Positions 2,624 through 52,568 of a DNA stretch of 64,000 bases are shown here, piece after piece; position 1 is the first letter of the stretch; each line of letters begins with the position of its first letter. Below the pieces are notes generated by a model. It saw only the letters and a program-made list of their open reading frames with translations, did not search any database and had not been told where the DNA came from. Both the position numbers and the translations under genes were made by a program. Source of the stretch: Candidatus Saccharimonadota bacterium (GTDB lineage: Bacteria; Patescibacteriota; Saccharimonadia; UBA4664); the NCBI GenBank assembly GCA_019352195.1, contig JACAFG010000005.1, positions 27,582 through 91,581 of the forward strand, read 5' to 3'.

Positions 2624-3784
2624 ATGTTACTCAAGTATATTAAATATGAGCTCGAACGGCTTCATGTCGGCGTCTGGCTCGGAGTTGCTGCAGTAGCCGC
2701 ATCGCTGCTCGTTCCAATGACTGCTAGCGCAGCCGGACAAATTACAACCAGGAGTGTTACGCCGAGTACCTCTGCAGGGGCAGCAACTGGTGTTACCTAC
2801 ACCTCAACGTTCACGCTCGCAACTTCGGCTCAGACACTCGGATCCATTAAGGTTGAAATCTGCGACTCACCGCTAGCCACTACGGCTTGTTCGGCGAGTT
2901 CAACCAGCGGTGTTAATTCAAACGGTGCATCATTTAGCTCTGCCACGCTAACCAGCTTGACTGGTGCCGGTGGTGGTGCTTTTTCTGCCAGCACTAAGAC
3001 CGGTGCTTCAACGTCTGGTACCTCGTTTATCTTCACTCGTTCGGCGAGCGCTGTAACGGGTACGCCAACCTTGGTTTTAACAATTGGTAACGTTACCAAC
3101 CCAACGGGTGTTAACCAAGCCTATTACTTCCGTATCTCAACCTACTCAGATACAGCGGCTACAACGCCTAGCTACCCTGGTACCGACTTCGGTGCAGTAG
3201 CCATGGATACTACGCAAAGCGTTACTGTTAATGCTAACGTGCAAGAATCTTTGACCTTCTGCGTTGGCACGGTTGCCACGCCTGCCAACTGTGCGGCTGA
3301 GACTGGTTCGACAGTTAACATTGGTACCGGTACGGACAACATCCTGTCAACTTCACCTTCAGGTGGTATTTCGACGATGCTCGCTTCTACCAACGCTTCG
3401 TCCGGATACGCGATAACCTACACGGCCGGCAACTTAAGTTCTTCCAGTGACACCATTACCGCTATCAACGGTGGTTCCGGCACGAAGCTAGCCCTGCCTG
3501 GTGCTGGTACAGCCGCCTTTGGCATCAACCTCATGAGCAACACAGCTCCAAGTATTACCAACTCGGCAGCTGTTGCTGGTTCGGGTACCGGTGTTGCTAG
3601 TACGAACTATGCCACCACCAACCAGTTTGCCTTTGTTCCGGCTACTGCAACCACCATGGCGTCGGCCGCTGGCCCAACCGTATCAAACACTTACACGGTT
3701 TCTTACGCGGCTCAAGCTGGTGCTACTACCAAGCCTGGTGCGTTTACGACGACCTTTAATTACATTGCGACCGGCACGTTCTAA
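2624..3784 (+). CDS. secreted Ser/Thr-rich surface protein, WxL-like family paralog 2
   Basis: 386-aa ORF with signal peptide ending ASAAG. It has an AFGINL motif and a C-terminal FNYIATGTF. AAGGGA lies upstream of the ATG. Confidence 0.7.
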   Translation: MLLKYIKYELERLHVGVWLGVAAVAASLLVPMTASAAGQITTRSVTPSTSAGAATGVTYTSTFTLATSAQTLGSIKVEICDSPLATTACSASSTSGVNSNGASFSSATLTSLTGAGGGAFSASTKTGASTSGTSFIFTRSASAVTGTPTLVLTIGNVTNPTGVNQAYYFRISTYSDTAATTPSYPGTDFGAVAMDTTQSVTVNANVQESLTFCVGTVATPANCAAETGSTVNIGTGTDNILSTSPSGGISTMLASTNASSGYAITYTAGNLSSSSDTITAINGGSGTKLALPGAGTAAFGINLMSNTAPSITNSAAVAGSGTGVASTNYATTNQFAFVPATATTMASAAGPTVSNTYTVSYAAQAGATTKPGAFTTTFNYIATGTF

Positions 3785-3854
3785 GGACGTCCGGCCGACG
3801 GGTCGGCCGGCATAGATGATCCCGATATTACGACCCCCCTTAAACCCCAACTCG

Positions 3855-4907
3855 ATGAAAATCAAACGCTTTATAGAACAACTCGCACTCGTTGCACTCG
3901 CCGCTTCTGCGGTGGGGGTGACGGGTGCGAATGCTGCTGGCGGGATTACTTCGCGAAGTGATCTGATGGGTTCTGCCGCGGCCAGCGCGACCACGACCCA
4001 CCAGATTTCATTCACGACTGCGAGTTCGGCGAGCATTGGTTCGGTTAGCTTTACCTACTGTACGACGGCGTATTCTGCCTGTGTCGTTCCTGCCGGACTG
4101 AGCACGACTACGGCTAGTCTGAGCTCGCAAAGCGGTACCGGCGGCACCGGGTTTAGCATTGTGAACGGTACTAATGGTGCGCCCTACGTTACTCGTTCGT
4201 CTTCGGCCATTGGCAGTAGCGTGGCTCTAAGCTATACCCTCAGCGGTGTGGTTAACCCTAGCAGTACTAACACGGAGTTTTACGTTCGCGTCGCCACCTA
4301 TACGGGTACCGATGGGGCTACCGGAGTAGTAGATAACGGTGTCATCGCTATCTCCACTTCGCAAGAGATTACCGTCACGGGGACGATGCCCGAAAGTTTG
4401 GTATTTTGTGTCGGGACCGCAGGCACAGACTGCACTAATATGACCGGGTCGGCGGTTGGGCTGGGTATTTTCTCGCCGGCGGTCGCTTCGACTGGTACGA
4501 GTGTCATGAGCGCTTCAACGAACGCTTCGTTTGGTTACGCCATCACGATTACCGGTACTACGATGCAAAGCGGCGCTAATACGCTGCCGGCGATGGGAAC
4601 ACAAACGCAAAACTCCAGTAATAATGCGGCCTCGGCTACCGGATCGAGTCAGTTTGGGACTAATGTTCGCGCTAATACCACTCCGGCCGTGGGTAGTGAT
4701 GTTTCGGGATCTGGTACTGCTGTTGGCCAAGGTGGCTATAACACCGTCAATGGCTTCCGATTTATGAGCGGCGACATTGTGGCGGGAGTTGCGGGGCCGA
4801 CTAATGCCAACTTGTTTACGAATACCTATCTCGTAAACGTTGGCGGCAACCAAGCGGCCGGCGTATATACCTCAACCTTTACTTACATTTGTACGGCGAC
4901 GTTTTAA
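3855..4907 (+). CDS. secreted Ser/Thr-rich surface protein, WxL-like family paralog 3
   Basis: Internal start MKIKRF... with signal peptide ending ANAAG. It has an SSQFGTN motif and a C-terminal FTYICTATF. It is a clear paralog of the 4907..5947 gene. Confidence 0.7.
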   Translation: MKIKRFIEQLALVALAASAVGVTGANAAGGITSRSDLMGSAAASATTTHQISFTTASSASIGSVSFTYCTTAYSACVVPAGLSTTTASLSSQSGTGGTGFSIVNGTNGAPYVTRSSSAIGSSVALSYTLSGVVNPSSTNTEFYVRVATYTGTDGATGVVDNGVIAISTSQEITVTGTMPESLVFCVGTAGTDCTNMTGSAVGLGIFSPAVASTGTSVMSASTNASFGYAITITGTTMQSGANTLPAMGTQTQNSSNNAASATGSSQFGTNVRANTTPAVGSDVSGSGTAVGQGGYNTVNGFRFMSGDIVAGVAGPTNANLFTNTYLVNVGGNQAAGVYTSTFTYICTATF

Positions 4908-5947
4908 TGACGACGAATATGTTTCATTCACGCATTCGTAACAAACTGGTAGCTGCGGCGGCCGCGTTAATCGTATTCTCGCCGCTCACGGCCGACGCGG
5001 CGGGGTTAACGGCGCGCTCCGATGTTATGGGAACGTCGGAGGCCGGTATCAGCACCACACACATTATTTCGATGACAACGGCCACCGCGGCCAGTATTGG
5101 TTCAATTGGCTTTTTGATGTGCACTACTTCGTCCGGTGCGTGTACCGTACCTTCAGGACTGGTAACTATCAGTGCTACGTTGTCAGCCCAGAGTGGCACC
5201 GGTGGGACCGGGTTTACACTGAACGCAACCACCAACGGTGCGCCCTATATAACCCGCACGGCAGCGGCCATTGCGGCTAGTGTTCCGCTTAGCTATACAT
5301 TGTCGAACGTTACTAACCCAACCGCTACTGATACCACGTTTTATATCCGTATTACGACCTATACCGGCTCGGACGGAGCAACCGGCGCCACTGATACCGG
5401 CCAGATTGCCGCTTCAACCGCGACGCCAATTCAGCTGACCGGGGTAACCCCGCCAATTTTGGTATTTTGCGTCGGTACGAGTATCCCGACCGACTGTACG
5501 AGTGCCACGGGGAATACCATCGACTTCGGTGATTTCTCGCCGGCTAGCACCAACATCGGAACCAGCGTGATGCAGGCGCAAACCAACGCGGCTAACGGCT
5601 ATACCATAACCGTAAACGGCACCACGCTGTCGTCCGGTACCAATACGATAACCGCTATGAGCGGCGCTGCTAGCACCACCGGATCGAGTCAGTTTGGCCT
5701 TAACTTACGGGTAAATACCGCGCCGGCGGTGGGCGCCGATGTTACCGGACCGGGAAGTGGGGTGCCAGTGTTCAACTACGCGAGTGCCAATAACTATCGT
5801 TTTAATACGGGCGATGTGGTGGCTTCGGCAGCGCTGCCCACGAACGCTAATACCTTTACGACCAGCTATATTGTGAACATTGGCGGAGCTCAGGCGGCGG
5901 GTGTATATACCGCCACCATGACCTACATCTGTACGGCTAGTTTCTAA
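4907..5947 (+). CDS. secreted Ser/Thr-rich surface protein, WxL-like family paralog 4
   Basis: Its ATG overlaps the previous stop (TAATG). Signal peptide ends ADAAG. It has an SSQFGLN motif and a C-terminal MTYICTASF. Confidence 0.7.
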   Translation: MTTNMFHSRIRNKLVAAAAALIVFSPLTADAAGLTARSDVMGTSEAGISTTHIISMTTATAASIGSIGFLMCTTSSGACTVPSGLVTISATLSAQSGTGGTGFTLNATTNGAPYITRTAAAIAASVPLSYTLSNVTNPTATDTTFYIRITTYTGSDGATGATDTGQIAASTATPIQLTGVTPPILVFCVGTSIPTDCTSATGNTIDFGDFSPASTNIGTSVMQAQTNAANGYTITVNGTTLSSGTNTITAMSGAASTTGSSQFGLNLRVNTAPAVGADVTGPGSGVPVFNYASANNYRFNTGDVVASAALPTNANTFTTSYIVNIGGAQAAGVYTATMTYICTASF

Positions 5948-5980
5948 TAATCCGCTAAGGACCAACTTAACCGTGACTGA

Positions 5981-7069
5981 GTGAGTATGAAAATCTTAGT
6001 AGTCAAGGTGCGTCTATCCAAAGATGTTACTTATGCTATACTGGCTTTAATGAAGCGGTGGACGATTGGTTTTGTGGTAGCTATGGTTGCTGTTGCGGCA
6101 CCTTGGGCGGCGGCGTTAGCCGCGACGCCTGTGGCGTCGCCAGCTGCCGCTACGGCTAATCCCGGCCAAGGCCTCGAGATCTCGCCGCCGGTGCTCGAAC
6201 TTAACGCTGATCCAGGTCAAACGGTAACGGCGGTGATTCGCGTTCGCAACGTGAGCTCGGGAACGTTGGTTGCGACTGGTAAGGCCGACGACTTTGGCGC
6301 TTCCGGTGAAGACGGTAAGCCGAAGCTGCTGCTGGATGAAACCTCGGCGACGCGCTATTCGCTCAAGTTTTGGGTTGCATCGGTACCAACGTTAATTTTG
6401 GCGACCCAAGAGTTGAAGACTGCCACTGTGCAAATTGTGGTCCCAAAGGACGCTGAGCCGGGTGGTCACTATGGGGTAATTCGCTTTACGGGTACGCCGC
6501 CAAACTTGCAGGGAACCGGAGTATCGCTCTCGGCTAGTGTTGGCACATTAGTATTGCTGCGCGTGAGCGGCGCCATCACCGACAGCGTGAAAGTAGCTAG
6601 CTTTACCACCAATCAAGCGGCAGTCCCGGCCGATGCTAGCCATAAGGCCCAGCCAGCCGGCCTGACCTCGAGTTTCTTTGAGCATGGACCAATTAACTTC
6701 GTACTGCGCATTCAAAATGACGGTACGGTGCACGAGCAGGTGAAGGGCAACATTGTTGTTAAGAACACCTTCGGCAAAACGGTCGCTACTGTTACCGTTA
6801 ATCCCGACGGCGGCAATGTACTCCCCGGGACGATTCGCCGCTTTGAGCAGAGTATGGCCAACAAGCGTATGTTTGGCTACTATAAGGCAACCTTTACCGG
6901 CAGCTACCTCGACGACAACCACAAGCTGGCTTCAACCGTTAGCTTTTGGGTCATTCCGTGGAAACTCATACTCCTCATTATCCTTGGCATTGCGATCTTA
7001 ATCTGGCTGCTGCGCCTGGCCTTCCGTCGCTATAACGCCTTTATTATTGCCCAGGCTCGCAAGCGCTAG
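5981..7069 (+). CDS. DUF916/DUF3324-like (CscA-like) cell-surface protein with C-terminal membrane anchor
   Basis: It has an N-terminal signal sequence. A motif GLEISPPVLELNADPGQTVTAVIRVRNVS follows, typical of DUF916 Ig-like domains. The C-terminus has a TM plus basic tail (WKLILLIILGIAILIWLLRLAFRRYNAFIIAQARKR). The true start may be the internal Met at ~6050. Confidence 0.6.
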   Translation: MSMKILVVKVRLSKDVTYAILALMKRWTIGFVVAMVAVAAPWAAALAATPVASPAAATANPGQGLEISPPVLELNADPGQTVTAVIRVRNVSSGTLVATGKADDFGASGEDGKPKLLLDETSATRYSLKFWVASVPTLILATQELKTATVQIVVPKDAEPGGHYGVIRFTGTPPNLQGTGVSLSASVGTLVLLRVSGAITDSVKVASFTTNQAAVPADASHKAQPAGLTSSFFEHGPINFVLRIQNDGTVHEQVKGNIVVKNTFGKTVATVTVNPDGGNVLPGTIRRFEQSMANKRMFGYYKATFTGSYLDDNHKLASTVSFWVIPWKLILLIILGIAILIWLLRLAFRRYNAFIIAQARKR

Positions 7070-7128
7070 GCGGATAAGCTAGCGACAGATATATTACGCT
7101 TATGCTACACTAGTGCCATGATATTCAC

Positions 7129-8064
7129 GTGCTATCCATGCTAGGCGCTGAACATAATTTGCGTCTGCGAGCGCATTCGCATACTTCGTATCCTGGCTTG
7201 TTATTTGCCTTGTTACTCACTGGTGTAATCGTATTGGGTGCCAGCATTGGCGCCCAGGGAGCGGTGCAAAATCCGCAATCGGGATCGGTTGGGCTTACCG
7301 GCACCGTGCCGGGTCCGGCGCCAACCCAGCCCGGCGTTATTACGAGCCCGAGTTCGGGCAGTCATACTACGTCGAGTCCTATTACCGTGGCAGGGACGTG
7401 TCCGGCCAATACTTTTGTCTTCATCGAGAAAAATGGCGTCCTCGCCGGGCAAGCCGCTTGCAACGGCGGTAGCTTTAGCCTGCAGGCCGACTTGTTTGCT
7501 GGTTCAAATCAGCTGGTGGCGCGCGTCGTGGACGGACTTGGCCAATACGGGCCTGATTCTGCCGCTATTACCGTGGTATACGATCAGCCCACCTCGCAAA
7601 CGGCAGGTATTGCCGTAGGACGCCAACTCTTCATTGAGAGCGGTGCTACCGTCGTCGCCGGTGAACCAAATACGGCTCTAGCGCGCGAGGTAAGGATTGT
7701 GGGTGGTACCGCGCCTTATGCGGTGTCGTGGGACTTCGGTGATGGTTCAAATAGCCTTATGACCGTAGCAGTTGAGGGCCCGGTGAGCGCGCTCCATACG
7801 TATACCTCGCCGGGAACGTATCAAGTGCTGGTTCGGGTTACCGATTCATTGCAAAATGCGGCGTTTATCCAATTGATTACGGTGGTAAATGGCCCGATAG
7901 CAGCGGTAACGGGAAGTAGTACCCAATCGGAGCTACCCGGTTCGCTGGTGGCCGCGTGGCCATTATTAGGTCTGGCAATATTTCTTGTGGGCGCGTTTTG
8001 GTTGGGTGAGCGGCGTGCTATGCACCGTCAGATGCTGCGTGATCGTTTGCGGCCTGTAGTGTAA
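7129..8064 (+). CDS. PKD-domain membrane protein
   Basis: It has an N-terminal TM. A PKD signature is present (YAVSWDFGDGS...HTYTSPGTYQVLVRVTD). A C-terminal TM is followed by a basic tail. Confidence 0.65.
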   Translation: MLSMLGAEHNLRLRAHSHTSYPGLLFALLLTGVIVLGASIGAQGAVQNPQSGSVGLTGTVPGPAPTQPGVITSPSSGSHTTSSPITVAGTCPANTFVFIEKNGVLAGQAACNGGSFSLQADLFAGSNQLVARVVDGLGQYGPDSAAITVVYDQPTSQTAGIAVGRQLFIESGATVVAGEPNTALAREVRIVGGTAPYAVSWDFGDGSNSLMTVAVEGPVSALHTYTSPGTYQVLVRVTDSLQNAAFIQLITVVNGPIAAVTGSSTQSELPGSLVAAWPLLGLAIFLVGAFWLGERRAMHRQMLRDRLRPVV

Positions 8065-8591
8065 TTCGGCTGTTCATATAGTCAGCGATGGGGCATAGGA
8101 CGGAGCTATCGACACCAATTCAAAAAATTAAAATGTCATAAGCAGCAATCTTGTCAATATCTAAATCTGAATTATCATTCAACATAATGAGCAAAAATCA
8201 ATATAAATTGTGTAGCATTTTTTTACAACTATATTGAGTTCGGCAATTTAATCTTAATTTTCATGTTGTAAATTGTGCTTTTGCAAAGTATATAAACGCT
8301 TGTAATTGAATTCTGTTTTGAGGAAGTTGCTATTTAATGCATTAAGAGTACTCCAATTGTAGGGCCTAAGTATTTCACCGTCTCCATGATTTTATAGCAA
8401 CATAATTGTTTGATTATTTCAAAGTCTATTATTAGGGTACTCATGCCACGCCTGTGTAAAAAACTCACATAAAGGCTTGGTTCTTGTTTGGGAGTGTGTT
8501 TGTTACGCGTAGATGCGGCTACATATGGGCATAAAATGTGGGGCAAAATGGGGTAGTGATAAATTGCTTAGCAAAGGCATTAAAATCGCCT

Positions 8592-8667
8592 ATATGGCTT
8601 GTGTTTTCAGATATGGCTTGTGTTTTTAGATAATGCTTGTGTTTTCAGATATGGCTTGTGTTTTCAG
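8592..8667 (+). repeat. 4 tandem copies of a 19-bp unit ATATGGCTTGTGTTTTCAG
   Basis: Direct reading gives units at 8592-8610, 8611-8629, 8630-8648 and 8649-8667, with 1-2 nt variation. They sit inside an AT-rich ~600-nt intergenic region (8065-8683). The last unit supplies the -35 of the downstream promoter. Confidence 0.8.
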
Positions 8668-8684
8668 ATAAAAACGCTTATGAT
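8656..8684 (+). promoter_or_regulatory. sigma70-like promoter TTGTGT-17-TATGAT of the giant surface-protein gene
   Basis: -35 TTGTGT 8656-8661, 17-nt spacer, -10 TATGAT 8679-8684. The same promoter with the same AAACGCTTATGATT spacer/-10 recurs at 14886-14914. Downstream is GGAGA-3nt-GTG. Confidence 0.5.
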
Positions 8685-8713
8685 TGGAACAGTATTTTTG
8701 TGTTTGGAGACCT

Positions 8714-11700
8714 GTGAGCAGACTTTGGCTGTTAAAGCTAAATAAGCGTCCCGCCATAACACGAATCTACACCGCCCTAGCGCTTGCCGGGCTGTTTTGG
8801 GTTGGACTTATCACGCTTAACATACCCACAGCTTCGGCTACTGGTGCAGCGGGAATCTATTCAACCATCAATTACCAAGGGCGTTTGCTGACTTCGACGG
8901 GCGCCGTGGTTCCCGATGGAACGTATAACATGGAATTTCAGATTTGGCAGGACGGCAACGGTTGTGTTACCGGCTGTACTTCGGCCAATGCGTCAACCAA
9001 CAACGGCGGTACGCTTAAATGGACCGAGGACTACGTTTATGGCACCGGCTCTCCAGACAACCGCGTGACGGTGAAAAATGGCTATTTCTCGGTGAGCCTT
9101 GGTTCGATTACATCGCTGTCTAGTGTCAACTTCAACTGGGACACAAACTACCTCACGACTAATATTGGTAATACTTCGACAGCCGCTACCTTTAGCGTGG
9201 CTTCGGGCGATGGATACATGATTCCGTTTAAGCGCCTCAGCGCTAATCCTTATGCCCTTAACTCGTCGCAGCTGGGCGGCCTCACCAGTTCACAGTACAC
9301 GCAGCTCGGCCAGGGTATCCAGGGTGCCGCAACTACCGGTACGACGGCGCTTATTGGCCTCAACCAAACCTCCACCGGTACCATTTTGGACCTGCAAAAA
9401 GGTGGCGCCGACGTACTGCTTATCGACTCAACTGGATCAACTTTGTTCCGTCCCACTACCGACTCGGCTATCGCACTGCAGGTACAAAAAGCCGGTACCA
9501 CCACGACGGTGTTTACGGTAGATTCGTCCAACTCGCGCATTGGCATTGGCACGGCGGCACCAGCCTACGCCGTGGACGCGGTGGGCTCGATTAATGCTTC
9601 CACGAGCCTCAAAGTTGCTGGAACTGATGTTTGTACCACGGCTGGCTGTACCGCTGATCCGGCCTCAGCTATCAAGAACCAAAACAGTGCCCAGCAGACG
9701 AGTGCCAACTTTTGGATTTCAGGCAGCGGACGCGCTGATACAAGTATTCTCACCCCTGGACTCGATACCGCCACTGGTGTTGCCCTTGCGATTGGAACCA
9801 CGAATGCTACGAGTATTAACCTCAACGAGAGCACCAATGTAGCCACGGGCAAAACTTTTACCACAAACGGCAGTGGTTTTGACGCTACCGGTAAACTTGG
9901 CATTGGCACTACCAGCCCGGCGGCCAACCTGGACGTACACAGTACCGCCACGACTGGAAATGCGCTGAGCGTTACGGCGAACAACCTAACCACCGGTATC
10001 GCCGTCAATGTCTCCAGTAGCCCTACCGCCGGGACAGGCGGCGCGCTTATTAATGCCAGTCAGTCAGGAACTATAACTACGTCTGGTACCGTGGGTGGCT
10101 CGCTGCTCAATGTGCAGCGCAGTATTACGGCCAATGTGTCAGCAGCAAGTGCGATCACGTTTGATTCTAAAACCACATCTTCGAGCTACACGTGGTCGCA
10201 CACCGTAGCCAGCCAAACGAACCGAATTTTAATTGTGGAATGTGATTCTTCGAGTGCAGCCACTAGTGCTACCTATAACGGCGTTGCTATGACTTTGATT
10301 GGCACCATCACGAACCCATCGAACCCATCAGCGTTAACCTTCTGGAAGCTCCTTGCTCCGGCCACTGGAACTCACGCGGTTACTATGGACCAAAACTGCA
10401 ACGTTGGTGCTGCTATAGGTGGCGTTTCCAGTAGTTGGTATAACGTTGATCAGACTACAGGCACAGGGACGTTCAGTAGCAATGACGCGGCGGCTAACAA
10501 TGTCTCGGTCAGCGTGGCATCGTTATTTGGCCAGGTGGTGATTGACGGAGCCGATGCCTACTTAAACGGTTATAGTTCATGGACAAATATTCCTGGCTCG
10601 GGTCAAACTATGCTCCTCAATCCTTCGTTGAGTTACGATTCGGTAGGGGCTAGTTATAAGGCTGGGGCCGCCACCTCAACTACTATGACCTGGAACTTCA
10701 GCGCTGGCGCTGGTGTACATATCTATATCGGTGGTTTTGCGCTTATTCAAGCACCGACTGGTTCCGCGGTAAACCTAGTGGGTTCGATTGTAAACCTTGG
10801 CTCCAACTGCACTAACACCGCGGGCGGATGTGCCGACAACAGTAGTATTTTGAGCCTAAACCAGCAGTACGCTAGTGCTTCAGGCGCTGTGGCAACGTTG
10901 CAGAATGCTGGAACCGGAGATATGGTCGATTTCCTGAACGGCTCATCGAGCATACTATCGGGCTTCGACTCGAGCGGTAACCTGTTTTTCAATAACTCTA
11001 CCTTCAAGTCCACGCTGAGTACGGGTACCCTCTCAGCGCCGCGATCGATCACGTTGCCAGACGCGAGCGGCACGGTGTGTTTGTCGGTAGGTAACTGTAG
11101 TGCAGCGGGTGGGTACATTGTCAATGGCACGAGCTTGCAGGCCAGCTCTAACTTCCATATTTCGGGCAGTGGAACGGCCGACACGAGCCTGTTGACCCCG
11201 ACCTTGGATACGGCGAGTGCTAGTGCATTGTCGATCGGAGTCACTGCAGCTACCACCATCGGCCTCGGCCGTAGCGGCCAAACGCTCAACATTGGCAGCG
11301 ATGCGATTAACCTCAATAACGGCTATTTGAATGTGGCAGGTACCACGTCGGCCACCAATTCGAAAGCATCGCTGGCTGGGACCGTGGCCTCGAGTACTAC
11401 TTCGCAATATGGGTTGGATAACGAAGTGGCCTTTAATCCGCAAGTAGCTATTACCGGCGCGGTGTATGGCAGCGTCAATATTCCCAACTTGTCGGGCAGC
11501 GCTCTGGCTGTTAGTTCGCTGCAAGGCTTTACCGCCGGAGTAAAAGAAACGGGCGGCGTTGGCAATTTTACCGGTACGGTTACGGACGCAATCGGGCTCA
11601 ACATTACCTCACCTCAAATCACGGGTGGTGGCAATAAATTTACCACCTACACGGGAGTCGACGTGGGTGCCAACTCCATTAACGGCGGTAACACCTCCGG

Positions 11701-14700
11701 TATCCTCACGAACAACGGCATCATCGTCGAGAGTATTTCGGCCGGCGCGGGTTCCGGTGGGACGGTTAATAACTACGGTATTAATCTCGCCCAGCCGAGT
11801 GGTAGCGGTACCGGCACGACCAACAACTACGGCATTAACATTCAGGGTGCGGGTGGTGGCTCTAACAACTACTCCATCTACAACCAATCGACGGCGGCCA
11901 GTTACTTCTCGGGCAATGTTGGCATTAACCAACTGACCACCGGCTCCTACAACCTGAATGTAAACGGCACGGCTAACTTTGCGACCAGTATTAATGTGCC
12001 GAGCATTACATCGAGTGCGGGCCTCACCTTGGCGACTACGGGGACGAACGGTCTGACGGCTGATACAGGTGGAGCAGGGACTATCAAAGTTGGTGCGGCC
12101 AACGCCAACAGTATTTTGATTGGAACAGCGACAACAGCCCAGGCATCTGGCGCGACAGGCACTATCTTCATTGGCAACACGAACTCAACAATTGTCGGTA
12201 TTTCGGGTCAAACGGTTGGTGTTGGTTCACCCTCCGGTGGCGCGCTGTTTATTACGGGCGGCGGTGTCAATGTGCAAGGTGCGTCGGCATTGGCGATGCT
12301 TTTCAATGTCACCAACACATCAAACAAGACCATCCTTCATGTCGATAGTAGCGCTAATGTGGTGAGCTTGGGCCAAACTTCAAACCTGACTGGCCAACTG
12401 CAATTTAGTAATGCGACGAACGCGTTTACGTCGACGATTCAGGGTAACACGGCAGCAACGGCGAGCTACACGTCGATTTTGCCCGGCGCGGTAGGGTCGG
12501 CTGGTCAATGTTTGACCGTGGCTAGCGTGGCCTCGACAACGCAAACCCTGGGTTATAGCGCTTGTGGCGGCGGTAGCTACGTAACGTTGCAAGGTGTTAC
12601 GCCCGGCACGGCCGATACTGGTAATCTCAATATTACTGGCACGGGTATCTTTGCTACTCAGATAACTTCGCCGATCGTTAAGACAACGAACCTGCGCCCA
12701 ACGGCCGACGGCACCTCGGCTATTCAATTCCAGAACGCTGCTGGCACCACTAACGTGTTGACGGTTGATACTACGAATAGTCGAATTAACGTAGGTACCA
12801 ATGGCACACCGACTGGGCAATTGTATGTTTCGGGTACTTTGCCGACGGCTGCGGCTGGATCGGTATCAACTGGCTCAGCTCCTAATAACATTTACGTTCA
12901 AGGTCATTACGCCTATACAGCCAACTATAGCTCTAGCACGCTCGGTATTTATGATGTCAGTAACCCCGCCGCCCCTTTCAGTGTAGGGTCGGTCTCTATC
13001 TCCATAGCGACCAATGTCTATGTTCAGGGTCGTTATGCCTATGTTACAAGCCAGGGCAGCGGTGGCATTGTCATTGTTGATGTCAGTAATCCAAGCAGTC
13101 CGATCAGTGTTGGCTCGGTAGCTACGGGGAGTAATCCCAAGAGTATATTTGTACAAGGAAGTTATGCGTACGTAGTCAATAACGGAGCTAGTACCATAAG
13201 CATTGTTGATGTTCACAATCCGGCAAGCCCCACAATCATCGGATCTACGGCTACAGGCCTCAATCCAAGCAGTGTTTATGTCCAGGGCAGGTATGCCTAT
13301 GTGATAAATAATACTGCGAGTACCTTGAGCATTATTGATGTCAACAATCCGGCAAGTCCATCCAGTGTTGGATCGGTAGCTACTGGCTCCAACCCAAATG
13401 CCGTCTTTGTTCAAGATAACTATGCATATGTAACAAATAACAGCGGTGCCGGGATGAGCGTCATTGATGTCTCGGCCCCAAGTGCGCCATCGAGCGTGGG
13501 TACCGTAGCAACCGGTACGTCTCCCAACGGTATTTACGTTCAAGGACGGTACGCCTATGTGGCAAATAGTGGCTCAAACACAATTGGCATTTACGATGTT
13601 GGTGGCGCCTACACGCAGCAACTGGAGGCGGGCGGAGCACAGCTAGGTATGCTGGCCGTGGATGGCAACTCTACGTTGGCTGGAGATGCCTCGGTGCAGG
13701 GCGGCCTGCAGGTAGGGCAGAGCGTCCAAATTGGGGGCGATGCCGGTATTAACGGTGGCTTGTCGGTGGGGGGCTCGGCGTCATTCGATGGTCCCGTGCA
13801 GGTAGGTTCATCGCTTACCGACACGACGCAGGTAAACTTGCAGCTCGATTCGACGAGCTTGTTCGCAGATAGCGGCACTTGCAGCACCACCACTAATCAG
13901 GGTGCCTTGTATTACAATACCAACACCAACGCCATCCGGAGTTGTGTGGGCGGAGCGTGGGAAGACGTGATAACGACGAGTGGTCTTGGCCTGGTATTAT
14001 TTGGTATTGTGCCCGACGGTGTAGCAACAACCGGTGTCGGCGACTTGGCTGGTGCCGGCGGATATAATTCGGGTCCGTGCAAAGTTTACATGAGCGGTAC
14101 GGCAAATATTATTGTCTGGAACTCGTGTACGGCGTACTCGAGTGGCCGCAAAGTGGCGGTGGCCGCCGGTACAGCGACGGTGAGTTCGAGCACGAGTGTC
14201 TTCCAAAACTTGTGTATCAATACATCGGGCGTGGCGGCGCTGGTGGGAACGGCTAACGCCACAGAAACTACCGCTGGCCTGTTCCCGGCCTTTTCACCGA
14301 GCGCACCAATACTGTGTTTGGCTACCATAAAAACGGCGACGGTAGCGAATAAAGTGGCGGCAATTTACGATACGCGCGTATATACCACCGATGACAAGAC
14401 CATTGCGACCATTGCAACTACTACCGGCCTTGGATCGATGGTCACAAACAACGGCACCCTCGGTCGCTATGCACCCACGAGTGCGGTAACCAACTCAATT
14501 ATGGGCGTGGTGGTGGCCTATAGCGGCACGGTGAGTACGGCAACGCCGAATGCGATTATTGTTACCTATGGTCCAGTGGCCATTAAAGGCACGGGTACTT
14601 CTGGCACGATTGCCCAGATGATTGAATGGGGTGCGGCCAACGGTTATGCCACCACGGTGGCGGCGGCGACGACGGCCACCAACCCTTATACGTATGCTGG

Positions 14701-14794
14701 TGTGGCCCAAAATACCAATGGTACCGTAGCGGCAGGCTGTGCTGTGTACACGGCATGTAGTGGGTCGTTGTTTACTACTTTTGCGCCAAGATAA
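8714..14794 (+). CDS. giant secreted cell-surface protein with LVIVD beta-propeller repeats
   Basis: The ORF track gives 8684..14794 (2036 aa) from a TTG that lies upstream of the predicted transcription start site (TSS). The likely start is GTG 8714, preceded by GGAGA, giving MSRLWLLKLNKRP... plus a hydrophobic core and ASA cleavage site. Seven tandem ~40-aa LVIVD-type repeats (YVQGRYAYV...IVDVSNP) lie at ~12890-13600. The protein is T/S/G/A-rich, with GIGTTSPAANLDV tail-fibre-like motifs. Confidence 0.8.
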   Translation: MSRLWLLKLNKRPAITRIYTALALAGLFWVGLITLNIPTASATGAAGIYSTINYQGRLLTSTGAVVPDGTYNMEFQIWQDGNGCVTGCTSANASTNNGGTLKWTEDYVYGTGSPDNRVTVKNGYFSVSLGSITSLSSVNFNWDTNYLTTNIGNTSTAATFSVASGDGYMIPFKRLSANPYALNSSQLGGLTSSQYTQLGQGIQGAATTGTTALIGLNQTSTGTILDLQKGGADVLLIDSTGSTLFRPTTDSAIALQVQKAGTTTTVFTVDSSNSRIGIGTAAPAYAVDAVGSINASTSLKVAGTDVCTTAGCTADPASAIKNQNSAQQTSANFWISGSGRADTSILTPGLDTATGVALAIGTTNATSINLNESTNVATGKTFTTNGSGFDATGKLGIGTTSPAANLDVHSTATTGNALSVTANNLTTGIAVNVSSSPTAGTGGALINASQSGTITTSGTVGGSLLNVQRSITANVSAASAITFDSKTTSSSYTWSHTVASQTNRILIVECDSSSAATSATYNGVAMTLIGTITNPSNPSALTFWKLLAPATGTHAVTMDQNCNVGAAIGGVSSSWYNVDQTTGTGTFSSNDAAANNVSVSVASLFGQVVIDGADAYLNGYSSWTNIPGSGQTMLLNPSLSYDSVGASYKAGAATSTTMTWNFSAGAGVHIYIGGFALIQAPTGSAVNLVGSIVNLGSNCTNTAGGCADNSSILSLNQQYASASGAVATLQNAGTGDMVDFLNGSSSILSGFDSSGNLFFNNSTFKSTLSTGTLSAPRSITLPDASGTVCLSVGNCSAAGGYIVNGTSLQASSNFHISGSGTADTSLLTPTLDTASASALSIGVTAATTIGLGRSGQTLNIGSDAINLNNGYLNVAGTTSATNSKASLAGTVASSTTSQYGLDNEVAFNPQVAITGAVYGSVNIPNLSGSALAVSSLQGFTAGVKETGGVGNFTGTVTDAIGLNITSPQITGGGNKFTTYTGVDVGANSINGGNTSGILTNNGIIVESISAGAGSGGTVNNYGINLAQPSGSGTGTTNNYGINIQGAGGGSNNYSIYNQSTAASYFSGNVGINQLTTGSYNLNVNGTANFATSINVPSITSSAGLTLATTGTNGLTADTGGAGTIKVGAANANSILIGTATTAQASGATGTIFIGNTNSTIVGISGQTVGVGSPSGGALFITGGGVNVQGASALAMLFNVTNTSNKTILHVDSSANVVSLGQTSNLTGQLQFSNATNAFTSTIQGNTAATASYTSILPGAVGSAGQCLTVASVASTTQTLGYSACGGGSYVTLQGVTPGTADTGNLNITGTGIFATQITSPIVKTTNLRPTADGTSAIQFQNAAGTTNVLTVDTTNSRINVGTNGTPTGQLYVSGTLPTAAAGSVSTGSAPNNIYVQGHYAYTANYSSSTLGIYDVSNPAAPFSVGSVSISIATNVYVQGRYAYVTSQGSGGIVIVDVSNPSSPISVGSVATGSNPKSIFVQGSYAYVVNNGASTISIVDVHNPASPTIIGSTATGLNPSSVYVQGRYAYVINNTASTLSIIDVNNPASPSSVGSVATGSNPNAVFVQDNYAYVTNNSGAGMSVIDVSAPSAPSSVGTVATGTSPNGIYVQGRYAYVANSGSNTIGIYDVGGAYTQQLEAGGAQLGMLAVDGNSTLAGDASVQGGLQVGQSVQIGGDAGINGGLSVGGSASFDGPVQVGSSLTDTTQVNLQLDSTSLFADSGTCSTTTNQGALYYNTNTNAIRSCVGGAWEDVITTSGLGLVLFGIVPDGVATTGVGDLAGAGGYNSGPCKVYMSGTANIIVWNSCTAYSSGRKVAVAAGTATVSSSTSVFQNLCINTSGVAALVGTANATETTAGLFPAFSPSAPILCLATIKTATVANKVAAIYDTRVYTTDDKTIATIATTTGLGSMVTNNGTLGRYAPTSAVTNSIMGVVVAYSGTVSTATPNAIIVTYGPVAIKGTGTSGTIAQMIEWGAANGYATTVAAATTATNPYTYAGVAQNTNGTVAAGCAVYTACSGSLFTTFAPR

Positions 14795-14885
14795 GCGTTT
14801 GATGGCCCGTTCTAATCGGCTTGGATGGGCGCTTAGGCTTGGTGATAATTGGTCTAAAACAGGCCGGTTTTGAGCGCCATAATGC

Positions 14886-14914
14886 TTGTGTTTATAGATA
14901 GAAACGCTTATGAT
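14886..14914 (+). promoter_or_regulatory. second copy of TTGTGT-17-TATGAT promoter
   Basis: TTGTGT 14886-14891, spacer ttatagatagaaacgct, TATGAT 14909-14914. It is followed by GGAGA (14936-14940), then 3 nt, then GTG 14944. This is the same architecture as at 8656-8716. Confidence 0.5.
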
Positions 14915-14943
14915 TAGCCTTGTAACATGTGTGATGGAGAAGA

Positions 14944-15261
14944 GTGACTACCCCTTGGGATATCCAAGCTAAGAGCCACCGACTATTTAATCGTAGGTTG
15001 ACCGCCCTGCTGGCAGCCGGGCTTTTTGGTGTTGGTATCTTTGTAACGGCGCCGGGGGCACACGCCACGTACGCGACGAGCGTCACGTTCACTGCCGGCA
15101 GCACGGCCCAAACGTCGACGACGGCCGGCTACGCCACCCAAGCCGCGACGGCCGCAGCATATAAAGATTTGGGACTGGTATTGAATCCGCCGCTCAATAC
15201 CGCGTGTAGCGCTTCCACCGACTGCCAGTTCTCGATGCTCGTAAATGTGGCCCCACACTAA
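14944..15261 (+). CDS. small secreted protein (105 aa), hypothetical
   Basis: GTG start, signal peptide LTALLAAGLFGVGIFVTAPGAHA. It is T/A-rich and co-regulated with the giant protein by the shared promoter. Confidence 0.5.
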   Translation: MTTPWDIQAKSHRLFNRRLTALLAAGLFGVGIFVTAPGAHATYATSVTFTAGSTAQTSTTAGYATQAATAAAYKDLGLVLNPPLNTACSASTDCQFSMLVNVAPH

Positions 15262-15305
15262 GCTAAGCTAGATACAGTGGCAGGTGATCTGGTACTATAA
15301 ACTAC

Positions 15306-15797
15306 ATGAAACGCTTATGGTGGTGGGTTGTTGGCGCCGTGCTGGTGGTGGGTCTGATTGTGATCATGGGCTTACTTCTGGCACCCAAAAACCCCATCCC
15401 GGGTCCAATTAAGAAGCAGGTGACGTCGACGCTGCTCATGCCGCGGGGTGCCGGTGCAGTGGTGGATCGGCAGAGTGTGAAATATGACAGTGCGCAAAAG
15501 CTGCTTACCTTTAATGTGGCCTATGCGGGTACCTCGATTGTTGTGAGTCAGCAGCCGACTCCCGATCAATTTGTCGATATCCCAGCGGTGTATACCAAAC
15601 TCATTGATAGCCTGGTCAATTATCAATCGTTTGACACGAGCATTGGCACGGTCCATCTGACGCAACCAAAACAGCTTAATGGCAAGCAGGCGGCGGTCCT
15701 TAATACGATGGGCACGCTCATGTTTGCCAAGCCAGATAAAAATTTATCTGATGATCAGTGGCGGAGCTTATTTAATCACATGGCAGCAATAAATTAG
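15306..15797 (+). CDS. N-terminally membrane-anchored hypothetical protein
   Basis: 163-aa ORF with a single N-terminal TM (WWWVVGAVLVVGLIVIMGLLLA). Confidence 0.55.
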   Translation: MKRLWWWVVGAVLVVGLIVIMGLLLAPKNPIPGPIKKQVTSTLLMPRGAGAVVDRQSVKYDSAQKLLTFNVAYAGTSIVVSQQPTPDQFVDIPAVYTKLIDSLVNYQSFDTSIGTVHLTQPKQLNGKQAAVLNTMGTLMFAKPDKNLSDDQWRSLFNHMAAIN

Positions 15798-15863
15798 TGA
15801 TTGCGGCATTGCAATAAGCATAAGTGTGTTAACATAATCGCATTAAGGACAGAACGTTAGAGC

Positions 15864-17499: not shown

Positions 17500-17622
17500 C
17501 CCATCAACTTCGATCTGATGTTGCCTCGTTGTGTCAGTTACTTCGCAGGGTCTAAAATCTGTTGTAATAAGCATAACTGTGATAGCATAATCTGAAGAAT
17601 GCTTTAAAAGACTCTTAAATTT

Positions 17623-19671
17623 ATGCCACAAGTTACCCCGCATTCATCTGCGTTTCGGCCCGCGCACCGTTTTAGTGCTTCGCTTGCATCTATTTGCGCG
17701 GCTGTCTTAGCTGTCATTGGTGTGTATGCGATTGCGGGGAGCCATGCCTCAACGAGCCAGCTTTACTTATCACCAAGTAATACCTCGGTTCTCAATGGCC
17801 AAAACGTAACCGTGGTGGTGTACGCTAACGCCGGCTCGGTGCCCGTGAACGCGGCGCAGGCTAACCTGTCCTACAACCCCAGTCAGTTGCAATACGTGGG
17901 TTACAGCAATGCCGGCAGTTTGCTTCCTCTCGACGCGCAGTCAGCCTCGGGTACCCCCAACACAGGTAGTTTGCAGTTTGTGCGCAGTACTCAGGGCGGT
18001 GGTGGGGCTCCGAGCGGTACCTTTATCGTCTTGAGCGTTACCTTTAAAGCCGTCGCCGGCTCTGGTACGGCGGCAGTAACATTTGGCTCGGGCTCGGCGC
18101 TGTACGCAGCGTCTGATTCGAGCAATATTGTTACCTCTACCGGTAGCTCCACGATTGGGTTAACCTCACCTGCGGTACCGACGCCCACTCCGACTCCGGC
18201 CGCAACACCGGCTCCCGCAGCTACGCCCACGCCCGTGTCCGGCAAAACAACTACCCCTACTCCTGCATCCCCAAAAACCGGCGCGACCGCCAGCGCACCC
18301 AATCCAGCTGTGGTAGCGGCAGCTGGTACCGCAGCTCTGTATTTGTCACCTGCCAGCGGTAGTGTGGCAAACGGCACCAAACTAACCGTTGGCATTCGGA
18401 TGAAAACCGCTTCACTGGTAAACTCCGTTCAGGCGAATCTAACCTACCAGACATCCGGACTAACGTTTGATTCGATTTCTGGCGACGGCAGCGCCTTCCC
18501 GCTGTCAGCCCAGGGTAATGGCGGTAACGGTACGGTAACCGTTGTTCGTGCTACCAATGGTGGGGGAGCGCCCGTAACGGGCGATGTCCTGATGGCCAAC
18601 ATTACCTTTATCGCGACCGCAAATTCGGGCACAGCCACGATCAAATTTGGGGCGGGGAGTGTGGTCCTGACAGCGGCCGATAGTAAGAATATTTTGGCAA
18701 ACCCGGTTGGGGGGACCTATTCGCTGATCAGCGGATCAAACTCGACTTCGGGCGCAGTTACTGCCAGCCATTTTGATGGCACCACTATTACGTTGCCGAC
18801 TACTGGTACTGGAACGCCGGTTGCGGTATCTGGCACCGTCAACTTACAGCCAAACGGGGTCGCCAGCGGTGAAACGGAGACCTATCAAATTGACGGCCAC
18901 AGTATTGGTTCGACCAAAATCAACACCACCTATCTCACCAATGGTACGCATATCGTAACGGCTATTACAACTAAGGCTGACGGGAGCAAAGCTACCATTA
19001 CGCAACCGCTGTCGGTGAATAACGCCCTAACTAGTTGGCAGATGTCGCGTAATACCGTGGTAGCTGCGTTTGGCGGCAATTCGAGCGTGGCCTTGGGCAC
19101 GGTAGTGACTCTGTCCTTACTCCTAGCTGCAGCGGTCGCTTTCCTGGTACTACGACCCCATCTTGAGGCCAGCCAAATTCAGAGCCAATTTGTTCATCAC
19201 GAGGCGGCCACTGGTCCAACAGGCTTTGGAGTGCCCAACGTGGTAATGCCGGCCGGCAGCGAACCGGCTTCACCGCTCGTTGACGTTAAGGTTTCGGCTG
19301 AGCCCAAGCCCACTGAGCCCCAAGTTGTCGAGCCGAGCCCAGAAGCCCCGGTGACAATTCAGCCAGCTGTAGAGACACCGTCTGCAGCCGAGCCAAGTAC
19401 GGACACGACCGAGTTGCCAGCTCCAGTCAAAACGAGCGATCCAATCGAAGAAAGTAACGTCAAAACCGATGAAACAAAGCCGGCCGATTCAGCCGAGGTG
19501 AAGTCTGAGACCGAAGCTGACGCGACGAGTGGTAAGCCGGCAGGTGAGACTGTTCCTAGCACATCAGACGATATGGCACCGGCCGCCGACGAAGCTGCCC
19601 CGGTAACCGAGACGAAGCCGGACTCAAGTGACGGTTCGACCCCGATTACCATTAATAAGCCCAAAGTTTAG
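17623..19671 (+). CDS. cohesin-like-domain surface protein with N-terminal anchor, C-terminal TM and long acidic tail
   Basis: 682-aa ORF, paralog of 15864..17499. It has a PT-rich linker, a TM (VVAAFGGNSSVALGTVVTLSLLLAAAVAFLVL), then an E/P/T-rich tail. Confidence 0.7.
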   Translation: MPQVTPHSSAFRPAHRFSASLASICAAVLAVIGVYAIAGSHASTSQLYLSPSNTSVLNGQNVTVVVYANAGSVPVNAAQANLSYNPSQLQYVGYSNAGSLLPLDAQSASGTPNTGSLQFVRSTQGGGGAPSGTFIVLSVTFKAVAGSGTAAVTFGSGSALYAASDSSNIVTSTGSSTIGLTSPAVPTPTPTPAATPAPAATPTPVSGKTTTPTPASPKTGATASAPNPAVVAAAGTAALYLSPASGSVANGTKLTVGIRMKTASLVNSVQANLTYQTSGLTFDSISGDGSAFPLSAQGNGGNGTVTVVRATNGGGAPVTGDVLMANITFIATANSGTATIKFGAGSVVLTAADSKNILANPVGGTYSLISGSNSTSGAVTASHFDGTTITLPTTGTGTPVAVSGTVNLQPNGVASGETETYQIDGHSIGSTKINTTYLTNGTHIVTAITTKADGSKATITQPLSVNNALTSWQMSRNTVVAAFGGNSSVALGTVVTLSLLLAAAVAFLVLRPHLEASQIQSQFVHHEAATGPTGFGVPNVVMPAGSEPASPLVDVKVSAEPKPTEPQVVEPSPEAPVTIQPAVETPSAAEPSTDTTELPAPVKTSDPIEESNVKTDETKPADSAEVKSETEADATSGKPAGETVPSTSDDMAPAADEAAPVTETKPDSSDGSTPITINKPKV

Positions 19672-19750
19672 CCCACCGTCTCGACCACAAGCGTAATCTG
19701 ATATAATGGGTACAGAGCGAACTTTGGTTTGCCGTGGTAAAGAGGGACCA

Positions 19751-31772: not shown

Positions 31773-31861
31773 ACGAGAGGCTAAAACTTGGCTTCAGACT
31801 AATCTCAGACAAAAGCGTTTATACTAAGATACAAGTACAAGCGTTTTAATGAGGAGTCAGT

Positions 31862-51412: not shown

Positions 51413-52417
51413 CTAACTGTCGTAAGCGGCCAAAAAGGCGTTGTTGTTTTTTAGCAGGTCGGATAGTCCGGTAGGATTTACAAACAGGTGACCAGTATCA
51501 GGGTACGTAAAATACTCGTGAGTTTTACCCGCGGCGGTGAGGGCGAGGTTGAGCTTAGCTGCAAAGGCCGGAGGGACACTGACATCGGTGAGGCCTTGGT
51601 TGATTTGTACCGGTACTGATAAACTTGAAACGTAGTTGATGGAAGATGCGTCATGCCAGTAGGCCGGATTTTGGCTGGGCGGCCCTTCGGCGCCGAGCAC
51701 TTGGCGGCGCTTGATGGCGACATCTGGTGGAACACGGCCGGTCCAATGAAATGCCAGGTTGGGGAGTGAATCGACGGCGCCAGCAATGGTAATGAGGCCG
51801 CGAATCGGCATGTTATGGGGCGCAACACCGGCGCGGAGGATTATCGCGCCGCCCATGCTATGGCCAATGAGGACGATTCGACTGGGATTTGCCAGAGGAT
51901 AGGTAGGCATGGAAGCGGCCAGGTTTAAGACATCGTAGGTATCATCCGGCGAAAATAAGCCGTTGCTGGCAACTCCCTGGGAGCTGCCAACGCCGCGGTA
52001 ATCGGGTTTTAAGATGAGATAGCCGTGTTGGCAGTACGATTCGATCATGGCTTGATACTGGGTGTTGTCGGTCTTGTAGGTTTTGGAATCGGTGTAGCCA
52101 TGCGCAAAAATAATTACCGGGTAGCCGCCGCGCGGCATGGCGGCCACGGGACGGGTAGCCAGCGCGTACTGAGTGAGGCCGTCGGAGTGAAATGACACGA
52201 TGTTCGTAGGACAGCCGGCGCGGGGCGCGACGGTTTTGACGGCGGCAATAACGCCGGGGGTGAGGGGATGCAGCCGGACCGCTTCAATGGCAGCTGGGTT
52301 GGGTTCGTCACCGTCTGGTTCAGGTTTCGTAAAACTCGTCACGCCAAAAATCGCCAGGGCAAGACTGCCCAGCGACGCGGTGATGATGAGAGCGAAAAGC
52401 GCGCGTTGTTTAACCAT
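51413..52417 (-). CDS. alpha/beta hydrolase paralog
   Basis: GHSMGG, with overall collinearity to 50360..51394. Confidence 0.7.
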   Translation of the reverse strand: MVKQRALFALIITASLGSLALAIFGVTSFTKPEPDGDEPNPAAIEAVRLHPLTPGVIAAVKTVAPRAGCPTNIVSFHSDGLTQYALATRPVAAMPRGGYPVIIFAHGYTDSKTYKTDNTQYQAMIESYCQHGYLILKPDYRGVGSSQGVASNGLFSPDDTYDVLNLAASMPTYPLANPSRIVLIGHSMGGAIILRAGVAPHNMPIRGLITIAGAVDSLPNLAFHWTGRVPPDVAIKRRQVLGAEGPPSQNPAYWHDASSINYVSSLSVPVQINQGLTDVSVPPAFAAKLNLALTAAGKTHEYFTYPDTGHLFVNPTGLSDLLKNNNAFLAAYDS

Positions 52418-52568
52418 AACTACCTTTATAATACAGGATCTATCGAGGCTAGGGTCGCGGTTTGCTGCGTAGCCTGCTGGAACAAGGTCGTAATCAAACC
52501 TTGCTCGTATCAGATAGGAACGGTATGCTAGAAAGGCATAACCACTTAGCTGGGATAATTTCGTCTTT

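Follow-up and report, generated by a model that had tools for sequence, protein, structure and literature searches.

RESULTS

Two neighboring genes are preceded by copies of a promoter-like block

The DNA analyzed here is a 64-kb stretch from a Candidatus Saccharimonadota bacterium (Saccharibacteria), referred to below as the window, which covers about 6% of the source genome. It contains a gene for a giant protein with LVIVD repeats and, downstream of it, a gene for a 105-amino-acid (aa) protein. Each gene is preceded by one copy of a 32-nucleotide (nt) block with the consensus GCTTGTGTTTnnAGATArAAACGCTTATGATT, and the upstream copy (copy A) overlaps the end of an array of 19-bp tandem repeats that in turn follows an AT-rich intergenic tract (Table 1). 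An earlier note on this DNA had read the block as a promoter shared by the two genes, and had proposed that repeat-number variation, a regulator binding the repeat units, or a silencing protein acting on the AT-rich tract might govern expression of an adhesin-like protein. We consider it probable, taking the evidence together, that the block is a core promoter and that the array is a local elaboration of it.

The giant protein matches the Pfam family LVIVD in five stretches (E=1e-27). Its GTG codon at 8714 is in frame with a TTG at 8684, and the NCBI gene call on a sister assembly of this genome starts at GTG 8714, which is most likely the true start. The large surface-type open reading frame (ORF) described earlier is thus present, with a length of 2026 aa more likely than the 2036 aa first assigned to it.

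Upstream of this gene, the final array unit continues into AAACGCTTATGATT, and the two together yield the hexamers TTGTGT and TATGAT separated by 17 nt, the geometry that the earlier note had reported. Copies A and B are identical at 29 of 32 positions. The distance between the end of the block and the GTG is 28 nt in both, with GGAG and GTG at equal offsets, confirming that promoter, spacer, and GGAGA-GTG context recur as a set in front of the second gene.

TABLE 1 Coordinates of the features discussed, in window positions
Feature	Position	Strand	Details
Nonconserved AT-rich intergenic tract	8065-8591	.	Separates the array from the PKD-domain protein gene, whose stop is at 8064
Possible decayed third copy of the block (GCTTTTGCAAAGTATATAAACGCTTGTAATTG)	8276-8308	+	Gapped local alignment
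Tandem array, 4.2 x 19 bp (ATATGGCTTGTGTTTTCAG)	8592-8670	+	Tandem Repeats Finder; repeat family D2 covers the array
Block copy A	8654-8685	+	-35 TTGTGT 8656-8661, spacer 8662-8678 (17 nt), -10 TATGAT 8679-8684
Leader of the giant gene, 28 nt plus start codon	8686-8716	+	GGAG 8706-8709, GTG 8714-8716
Giant secreted or surface protein gene, LVIVD repeats	8714-14794	+	2026 aa from GTG
Block copy B	14884-14915	+	-35 TTGTGT 14886-14891, -10 TATGAT 14909-14914; model R1 71 bits
28-nt leader and 105-aa gene	14916-15261	+	GGAG 14936-14939, GTG 14944-14946

The block is conserved in front of orthologous genes

Homologs of a 163-aa protein encoded downstream of the 105-aa gene led us to two related Saccharibacteria contigs from a single ENA assembly, L031 (1.09 Mb) and L034. 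In both, a giant LVIVD/CBM protein gene lies directly upstream of the 163-aa protein gene, and over the N-terminal 400 aa these orthologs are 73% (L031) and 60% (L034) identical to the giant protein of the window. The block (GCTTGTGTTTnnAGATAGAAACGCTTATGATT) occurs once in each contig and ends exactly 28 nt before a GTG. In each of the four copies, which represent three genomes, this distance is 28 nt, GGAG lies 3 to 4 nt before the start codon, and 29 of the 32 block positions, including those in the spacer, do not vary. Relative to the Escherichia coli consensus, the -35 hexamer matches TTGACA at 3 of 6 positions and the -10 hexamer matches at 5 of 6, in all four copies.

Conservation is confined to the block itself. 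Ungapped identity among the four copies is 91 to 94% within the block, falls to 22 to 34% (the random level) in the 50 nt upstream of it, and is 32 to 61% in the 28-nt leader and 50 to 64% in the first 90 coding nt. The difference between block and upstream flank marks the block as a sharply bounded island of purifying selection, as expected of a selected cis-element. Its conservation before orthologs, its fixed distance from the start codon, and its random flanks together uphold the proposal that the giant gene and the 105-aa gene have a cis-element in common. Copy B is closer than copy A to the blocks of L031 and L034, with which it shares a G at block position 18, and its leader is 46 to 61% identical to theirs, compared with 32 to 36% for the leader of copy A.

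More distant loci help to delimit the element. A third relative, L032, has neither the block nor the giant gene; there the 163-aa gene directly adjoins the gene for the PKD protein. Searching with a profile of the giant protein's N terminus recovered only homologs of at most 700 aa with 30 to 60% identity, and the regions upstream of these (L039, L040, and L041) do not contain the block, except for its -35 part in L040. There, CGCTTGTGTTTTTAG stands as a -35 region 17 nt before the extended -10 element TGATAAGGT, a pairing that supports GCTTGTGTTT as the -35 region of the block. A profile built from the four leader peptides, used to look for further genes of this cassette, gave no matches.

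Other promoters of the same genomes have equally conserved spacers

As a control, we aligned the sequences preceding three further sets of orthologs in these genomes, namely, the cohesin-like genes, parA, and the 163-aa gene. The cohesin-like genes, of which the window has two paralogs (15864 and 17623) and each relative one or two, share the promoter TTG(C/T)AAtAAGCATAAGTGTGaTAgCATAA (TTGyAAtAAGCATAAGTGTGaTAgCATAA), with a conserved spacer, in four genomes. A block upstream of parA (ACCACAAGCGyMATCTGrTATAATG) is likewise kept in four genomes. Conserved extended -10 promoters precede both the first of the paralogous surface-protein genes (TTGACC-N12-GCTTATGyTA...) and the PKD gene. Because spacers as well as hexamers are conserved in these control promoters, conservation of the kind seen in the block appears normal for promoters in this clade, and the block is not exceptional. 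The cohesin-domain paralogs have homologous N-terminal leaders in addition to the duplicated promoter, and are a second case in which a promoter has been copied together with the 5' end of a gene.

The cohesin promoter is found at 15809-15838 and about 17562-17591 in the window and upstream of 10563 and 12416 in L031, 10786 in L034, and 10576 in L032. The parA block is found at 19670-19710 in the window, about 14215-14245 in L031, about 12640-12665 in L034, and about 12310-12340 in L032. The longest parA ORF of the window opens with an ATG (19706) that overlaps the -10 element, and the true parA start is probably further downstream.

Most of the recognizable promoters in this genome are of a different type from the block. 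Extended -10 elements (TGnTAnnnT) lie 6 to 8 nt before an ATG, with no Shine-Dalgarno sequence, at 15285-15308, 7100-7140, and 52417-52445 (minus strand). The 163-aa gene, which has TGnTAnnAT 6 to 7 nt before its ATG, appears to be leaderless, and the arrangement of these sites suggests that leaderless mRNAs may be common in this Saccharibacterium. In contrast to such genes, the giant gene and the 105-aa gene have a leader that contains GGAG. The 163-aa gene begins with ATGAAACGCTTATGGTGG in every genome, with 12 nt in common with the block.

Three apparent sharings of sequence among these promoters were considered and set aside. The recurrence of GCTTATG in promoters of the surface-protein cluster is explained by the extended -10 element (CTTA-TGn-TAnnnT), and we rejected it as a shared operator. 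GCTTGTG-like words in the parA promoter (inverted) and in the spacer of the promoter of a 316-aa gene are too heterogeneous in position and orientation to be treated as a motif. The 3' half of the block (reverse complement AATCATAAGCGTTT) and the cohesin spacer AAGCATAAGTGTGT truly share only CTTATG, which we judged to be due to chance.

The tandem array repeats the upstream half of the block

Tandem Repeats Finder reports an array with period 19, 4.2 copies, 90% matches, and a score of 137, which bears out the four tandem units described earlier and is the sole strong tandem array in the window. The units begin at 8592 (ATATGGCTTGTGTTTTCAG), 8611 (ATATGGCTTGTGTTTTTAG), 8630 (ATAATGCTTGTGTTTTCAG), and 8649 (ATATGGCTTGTGTTTTCAG), and differ at three variant positions. 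The 17-mer GCTTGTGTTTnnAGATA occurs five times in the window, four times in the array and once at 14884, against an expectation of 0.09, a count reached in 0 of 100 shuffled sequences. Every unit contains the -35 box plus the 5' half of the spacer, and units 1 to 3 are partial matches, at model positions 2-23, to the element model R1 (block plus leader). AAACGCTTATGAT follows the 3'-most unit only, and a complete promoter is formed by that unit alone; none of the other TTGTGT boxes in the array has a -10-like hexamer at a suitable spacing. The three additional units place extra -35-like boxes at approximately -54, -73, and -92. With the last unit, and no other, at the right distance from the -10 hexamer, the core promoter is left intact.

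We compared the array among genomes. L031 and L034 have no counterpart to it and carry a single unit each. A sister assembly from the same population as the window also carries four units, and these match those of the window variant for variant. Immediately 5' of the first unit, copies A and B become similar again (CGCC-ATAnnG; tCGCCtATAtgG versus gCGCC-ATAatG), the pattern to be expected had three units been inserted into a single-unit ancestor. The unit is flanked by the short direct repeats ATA..G and AGATA. By these comparisons the array, together with the 530-nt AT-rich tract, is private to this genome.

A proposed model of the promoter and of the origin of the array

Based on these observations, we propose that the functional unit would be a lineage-conserved core promoter consisting of the -35 hexamer TTGTGT, a conserved 17-nt spacer, and the -10 hexamer TATGAT, and that a leader with a GGAG Shine-Dalgarno sequence and a constant length of 28 nt connects it to the GTG. 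Copy A of this putative promoter would drive the gene for the giant LVIVD-repeat surface protein of a small Saccharibacteria clade, and copy B the 105-aa gene, which encodes the giant protein's leader peptide. The array would be a genome-specific tandem amplification of the upstream half of the promoter, that is, of the -35 box and half of the spacer. We infer that it arose by slippage, most likely slipped-strand or unequal recombination between the microhomologies ATA(T/A)(G/T)G and AGATA that bracket the unit. The extra units would at most modulate promoter strength by offering added docking for RNA polymerase and its sigma factor or for another factor, and their effect is presumably weak or neutral.

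Several observations weigh against this model. A simple scan for the sigma-70 consensus with a 9-of-12 cutoff omits TTGTGT-17-TATGAT, whose -35 hexamer has 3 matches of 6. Most recognizable promoters here have an extended -10 element and are often leaderless, and the block, unlike them, has no TGn extension. RNA polymerase does not normally require a 17-nt spacer of invariant sequence, which makes a bound factor conceivable. In L031, a perfect extended -10 element (TGGTATAAT) lies 12 nt downstream of the block, within what would be the leader (1605-1632), where the other three copies have only GTA(A/T); it may be a second, overlapping promoter. In L034, TTGACC-18-TATTAT lies upstream of the block, and these two sites mean that the real start of transcription could differ between genomes. 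Finally, the presence of three unit variants indicates that the array has existed for some time; both a neutral array and one kept by selection would fit.

Does a dedicated regulator recognize the block?

The invariance of the block, spacer included, could reflect a dedicated transcription factor or alternative sigma factor for which the block and the 19-bp units are sites, with the array boosting or gating expression of the giant protein. We consider this unlikely. Some internal features of the block would suit such a protein, namely, a direct repeat (GCTTGTGTTT and GCTTATGATT, 22 bp apart, extended in L031 to AAACGCTTGTGTTT and AAACGCTTATGATT) and an imperfect dyad (GTGTTT-N8-AAACGC). Nevertheless, unrelated promoters in these genomes have spacers that are just as invariant, and the invariance is therefore not specific to the block. 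The period of 19 bp corresponds to 1.8 helical turns, out of helical phase, which puts successive units on different faces of the helix. With respect to a sigma factor of the extracytoplasmic function (ECF) type, GAAAC (AAAAC in copy A) is invariant and GTA follows 14 to 16 nt downstream in 4 of 4 copies, and L034 and copy B can be read as an ECF-like GAAAC-N15/16-(C)GTAAC; the CGT of such a -10 element, however, is present in L034 only.

A dedicated regulator might also be expected to leave traces elsewhere. The model R1 found only the known copies in approximately 230 kb of related sequence (187 kb plus 42 kb). A scan of sequence collections with the pattern GCTTGTGTTTnnAGATAN{2,5}GCTT(RTG) returned 28 matches in 596 Gb of reference genomes, 1 in JGI metagenomes, and 0 in IMG/VR, all of them single chance matches in unrelated taxa or coding sequence. 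The element is therefore either rare or restricted to genomes outside those collections. No gene for a regulator, sigma factor, or transcription factor was found in the 64-kb window. Together, these three results do not bear out the earlier suggestion that the units are regulator binding sites. The 8-mer AAACGCTT/AAGCGTTT is enriched in the window (11 occurrences versus 2.8 expected), which could speak for a regulator site, but several of its occurrences fall within coding sequence. Two copies of AAACGCTT, 26 nt apart (31807-31846), lie upstream of an htrA-like protease gene that starts at 31862, and one copy (14786-14804) lies immediately after the stop codon of the giant gene.

Does the array tune expression by changing its copy number?

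We also considered whether the array is a contingency locus, phase variable or rheostat-like, in which slippage tunes the amount of the giant adhesin-like protein. There is precedent in Haemophilus influenzae hmw1A and hmw2A, in which repeat number is inversely related to transcript level (PMC2424069; also PMC8262952, PMC12721329). Two aspects of the locus agree with such a role: a tandem repeat is situated directly at the promoter of a giant surface-protein gene, and within the same gene the two assemblies differ by one LVIVD coding unit of 129 nt, a sign of either repeat instability or ambiguity at this locus. The promoter array, on the other hand, has exactly four units with identical variants in both assemblies and a single unit in the relatives, so that the copy-number variation suggested earlier is not what we observe. 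Since the two assemblies represent the same population and are not independent samples, their equal copy number is weak evidence for stability, and it is no evidence for variation. An array of only 4 units, each as long as 19 bp and with 3 variant positions among them, would be predicted to slip at a low rate. Contingency loci are typified by short units (1 to 9 bp) in many perfect copies, a pattern from which this array (19 bp, 4.2 copies, 90%) departs. Moreover, because each unit carries its own -35 box, gain or loss of units leaves the spacing between the -35 and -10 hexamers of the last unit unchanged; classical spacer-length phase variation is thus inapplicable, and only effects on upstream contacts are conceivable. 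On balance a contingency role seems improbable to us. We are similarly doubtful of a combined version, in which a regulator or sigma factor devoted to surface proteins with this leader recognizes the unit and the array is a selectable, copy-number-tunable enhancer of the giant adhesin-like protein, in effect a contingency-type switch.

RNA structure and the AT-rich tract

If the block were transcribed from a promoter further upstream, it might act as an RNA leader element, such as a hairpin or protein site for translational control. The fixed 28-nt distance to the start codon would fit, as would the promoter-like sites upstream of the block in L034 (the TTGACC-18-TATTAT mentioned above) and possibly in copy B and L031 (GGTGATAAT and GGTTATAAG), and a 6-bp hairpin, GUGUUU/AAACGC, can be drawn in all copies. 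Upstream of copy A, however, there is the array rather than a conserved promoter. Folding energies are no better than those of shuffled sequences (z-scores of +0.26 to +1.36), the consensus fold has an energy of -4.2 kcal/mol with only 6 invariant pairs and a covariation term of 0, and there is no Rfam match. We rejected an RNA element on the folding scores, the lack of covariation, and the absence of an Rfam match, and regard it as very improbable.

The GC content of the AT-rich tract is 34.5% at 8065-8591 and 34% when extended to 8683, against a window mean of 54%; the tract is therefore AT-rich in its context, as the earlier note held, although not to the degree of about 30% GC stated there, with values of 22 to 28% confined to 8115-8315. 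No homolog of the tract was found in the related loci or in the rest of the window, and no Rfam match was found in it. The corresponding intergenic regions of L031 and L034 are 280 and 124 nt long and are not AT-rich. The tract contains one ORF of at least 60 aa (70 aa, minus strand), which has no Pfam match. A search for hidden extra array units gave two weak matches versus 1.1 expected, that is, none.

The third partial copy of the promoter noted at 8291-8308 is present as sequence, with 2 mismatches to AAACGCTTATGATT, and is statistically marginal: local alignment gives p of approximately 0.04 against copy A and 0.15 against copy B, and the model R1 misses it at a cutoff as loose as E<=10. 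Its -10 equivalent, TGTAAT, is without the critical A at position 2. We regard the tract as nonconserved filler; it may be a scar from the rearrangement that brought in the giant gene, and may include a single decayed copy of the promoter.

That the tract and repeats form a replication origin or iteron element, or a silencing target for a nucleoid protein on foreign DNA, is scarcely credible: an AT-rich intergenic region of 600 nt with repeats, parAB 11 kb away, a cumulative GC skew that is flat before about 20 kb and rises steadily after it, and the lack of a counterpart in relatives, as for foreign or rearranged DNA, could be cited for it, but the repeated sequence is no more than the -35 half of a conserved promoter, the window contains neither dnaA nor dnaN, and no H-NS-type silencer is known from this phylum. 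We rejected an oriC on the lack of a DnaA box cluster, since no DnaA box (TTATCCACA, at most 1 mismatch) occurs in 8065-8700 and the 9 boxes in the whole window compare with 10.5 expected by chance. Nothing in the array or the AT-rich tract points to a switch, a platform for regulators, or a target of silencing.

The 105-aa gene and the surrounding locus

The 105-aa protein has an N-terminal leader homologous to that of the giant protein (E=0.003), and the C-terminal 19 residues of the two proteins align weakly. In L031 and L034, the interval from the giant gene to the 163-aa gene contains no counterpart of the 105-aa gene. The 105-aa gene is probably a duplicated and internally deleted derivative, or relic, of a giant gene that would have retained the promoter, the leader peptide, and the C-terminal tail. 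The 163-aa ORF (15306-15797) is identical to HJC99_04515 of a Candidatus Saccharibacteria metagenome-assembled genome.

The sister assembly referred to above is contig JABBYD010000097.1 (GCA_017884045.1, locus L029), which is 100% identical to the window on either side of a single difference. That sole difference is one extra 129-nt LVIVD coding repeat (window 12886-13565, L029 7462-8360), giving 6 units and 2026 aa in the window compared with 7 units and 2069 aa in L029. A Logan contig of the same run breaks within this coding repeat. No publication was found to cite either the run or the assembly. The difference is either real heterogeneity in the population or an assembly collapse.

Gene order marks the giant gene as an insert that varies among genomes, located between the genes for the PKD protein and the 163-aa protein (8065-15261 in the window, compared with 9948-10001 in L032). 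It is absent from L032, is found in L031 and L034 without the upstream surface-protein cluster, and is accompanied in the window by both that cluster and the 105-aa gene. The cluster (2624-8064) encodes three paralogous secreted proteins (...TGTF/...TATF/...TASF), a C-terminally anchored 362-aa protein, and the PKD-domain protein, and it is also found in L032 (4592-9948), L040 (2763-5830), and L041 (996-5790). The L041 homolog of the 362-aa protein has a weak match to WxLIP_PGBD, and the cluster resembles the WxL surface-protein loci of Firmicutes.

DISCUSSION

Read from sequence and its conservation, the feature upstream of the giant gene would be a conserved, gene-specific promoter whose -35 half has undergone local duplication in tandem, an ordinary arrangement of a known kind. 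Like sigma-70-type core promoters, the block has hexamers 17 nt apart, is situated some 30 nt upstream of a start codon that has a Shine-Dalgarno sequence in front of it, and is conserved before orthologs. Like sigma-70-type promoters that have been duplicated along with the 5' ends of paralogs, it has been copied together with a region coding for a leader peptide, as in the cohesin-like paralogs. It differs from typical core promoters of this type in its weak -35 hexamer (3/6 of the E. coli consensus), its invariant spacer, and its missing TGn extension.

The array recalls two systems in which repeats at a promoter influence an adhesin. The promoters of H. influenzae hmw1A and hmw2A contain 7-bp repeats in 9 to 28 copies, located downstream of the promoter elements, with documented changes in copy number (PMC2424069, PMC8262952, PMC12721329). 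The locus described here resembles them in having tandem repeats in the promoter region of a gene for a very large secreted surface protein and an architecture duplicated at two loci. It differs in that the units are 19 bp long, are present in four imperfect copies, lie upstream of and include the -35 hexamer, and show no observed variation. Neisseria meningitidis nadA has a TAAA tetranucleotide tract with high slippage, for which the partner proteins NadR and IHF are known. As in nadA, the repeat tract here is upstream of the core promoter of an adhesin gene and could alter upstream contacts while the -35/-10 spacing is kept. No partner protein comparable to those of nadA was identified at the 19-bp array.

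A literature search found no paper on promoters of Saccharibacteria or other bacteria of the Candidate Phyla Radiation (CPR), and these promoters are essentially uncharacterized. In this setting, the locus supplies a probable promoter, sharply bounded and conserved across genomes, for a giant surface protein, a member of the class of proteins expected to mediate attachment to host bacteria. The comparison promoters, namely, those of parA, the cohesin-like genes, and the leaderless genes, outline a promoter grammar for the clade. If the copy number of the array did vary, it would be a first candidate for repeat-mediated expression tuning in CPR bacteria; and if the units were regulator sites in a tunable array, this would amount to a contingency-type switch in an ultrasmall episymbiotic CPR bacterium, where none has been described. 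As it stands, the locus represents a well-documented but ordinary promoter duplication, and with it a first glimpse of the promoter architecture of Saccharibacteria.

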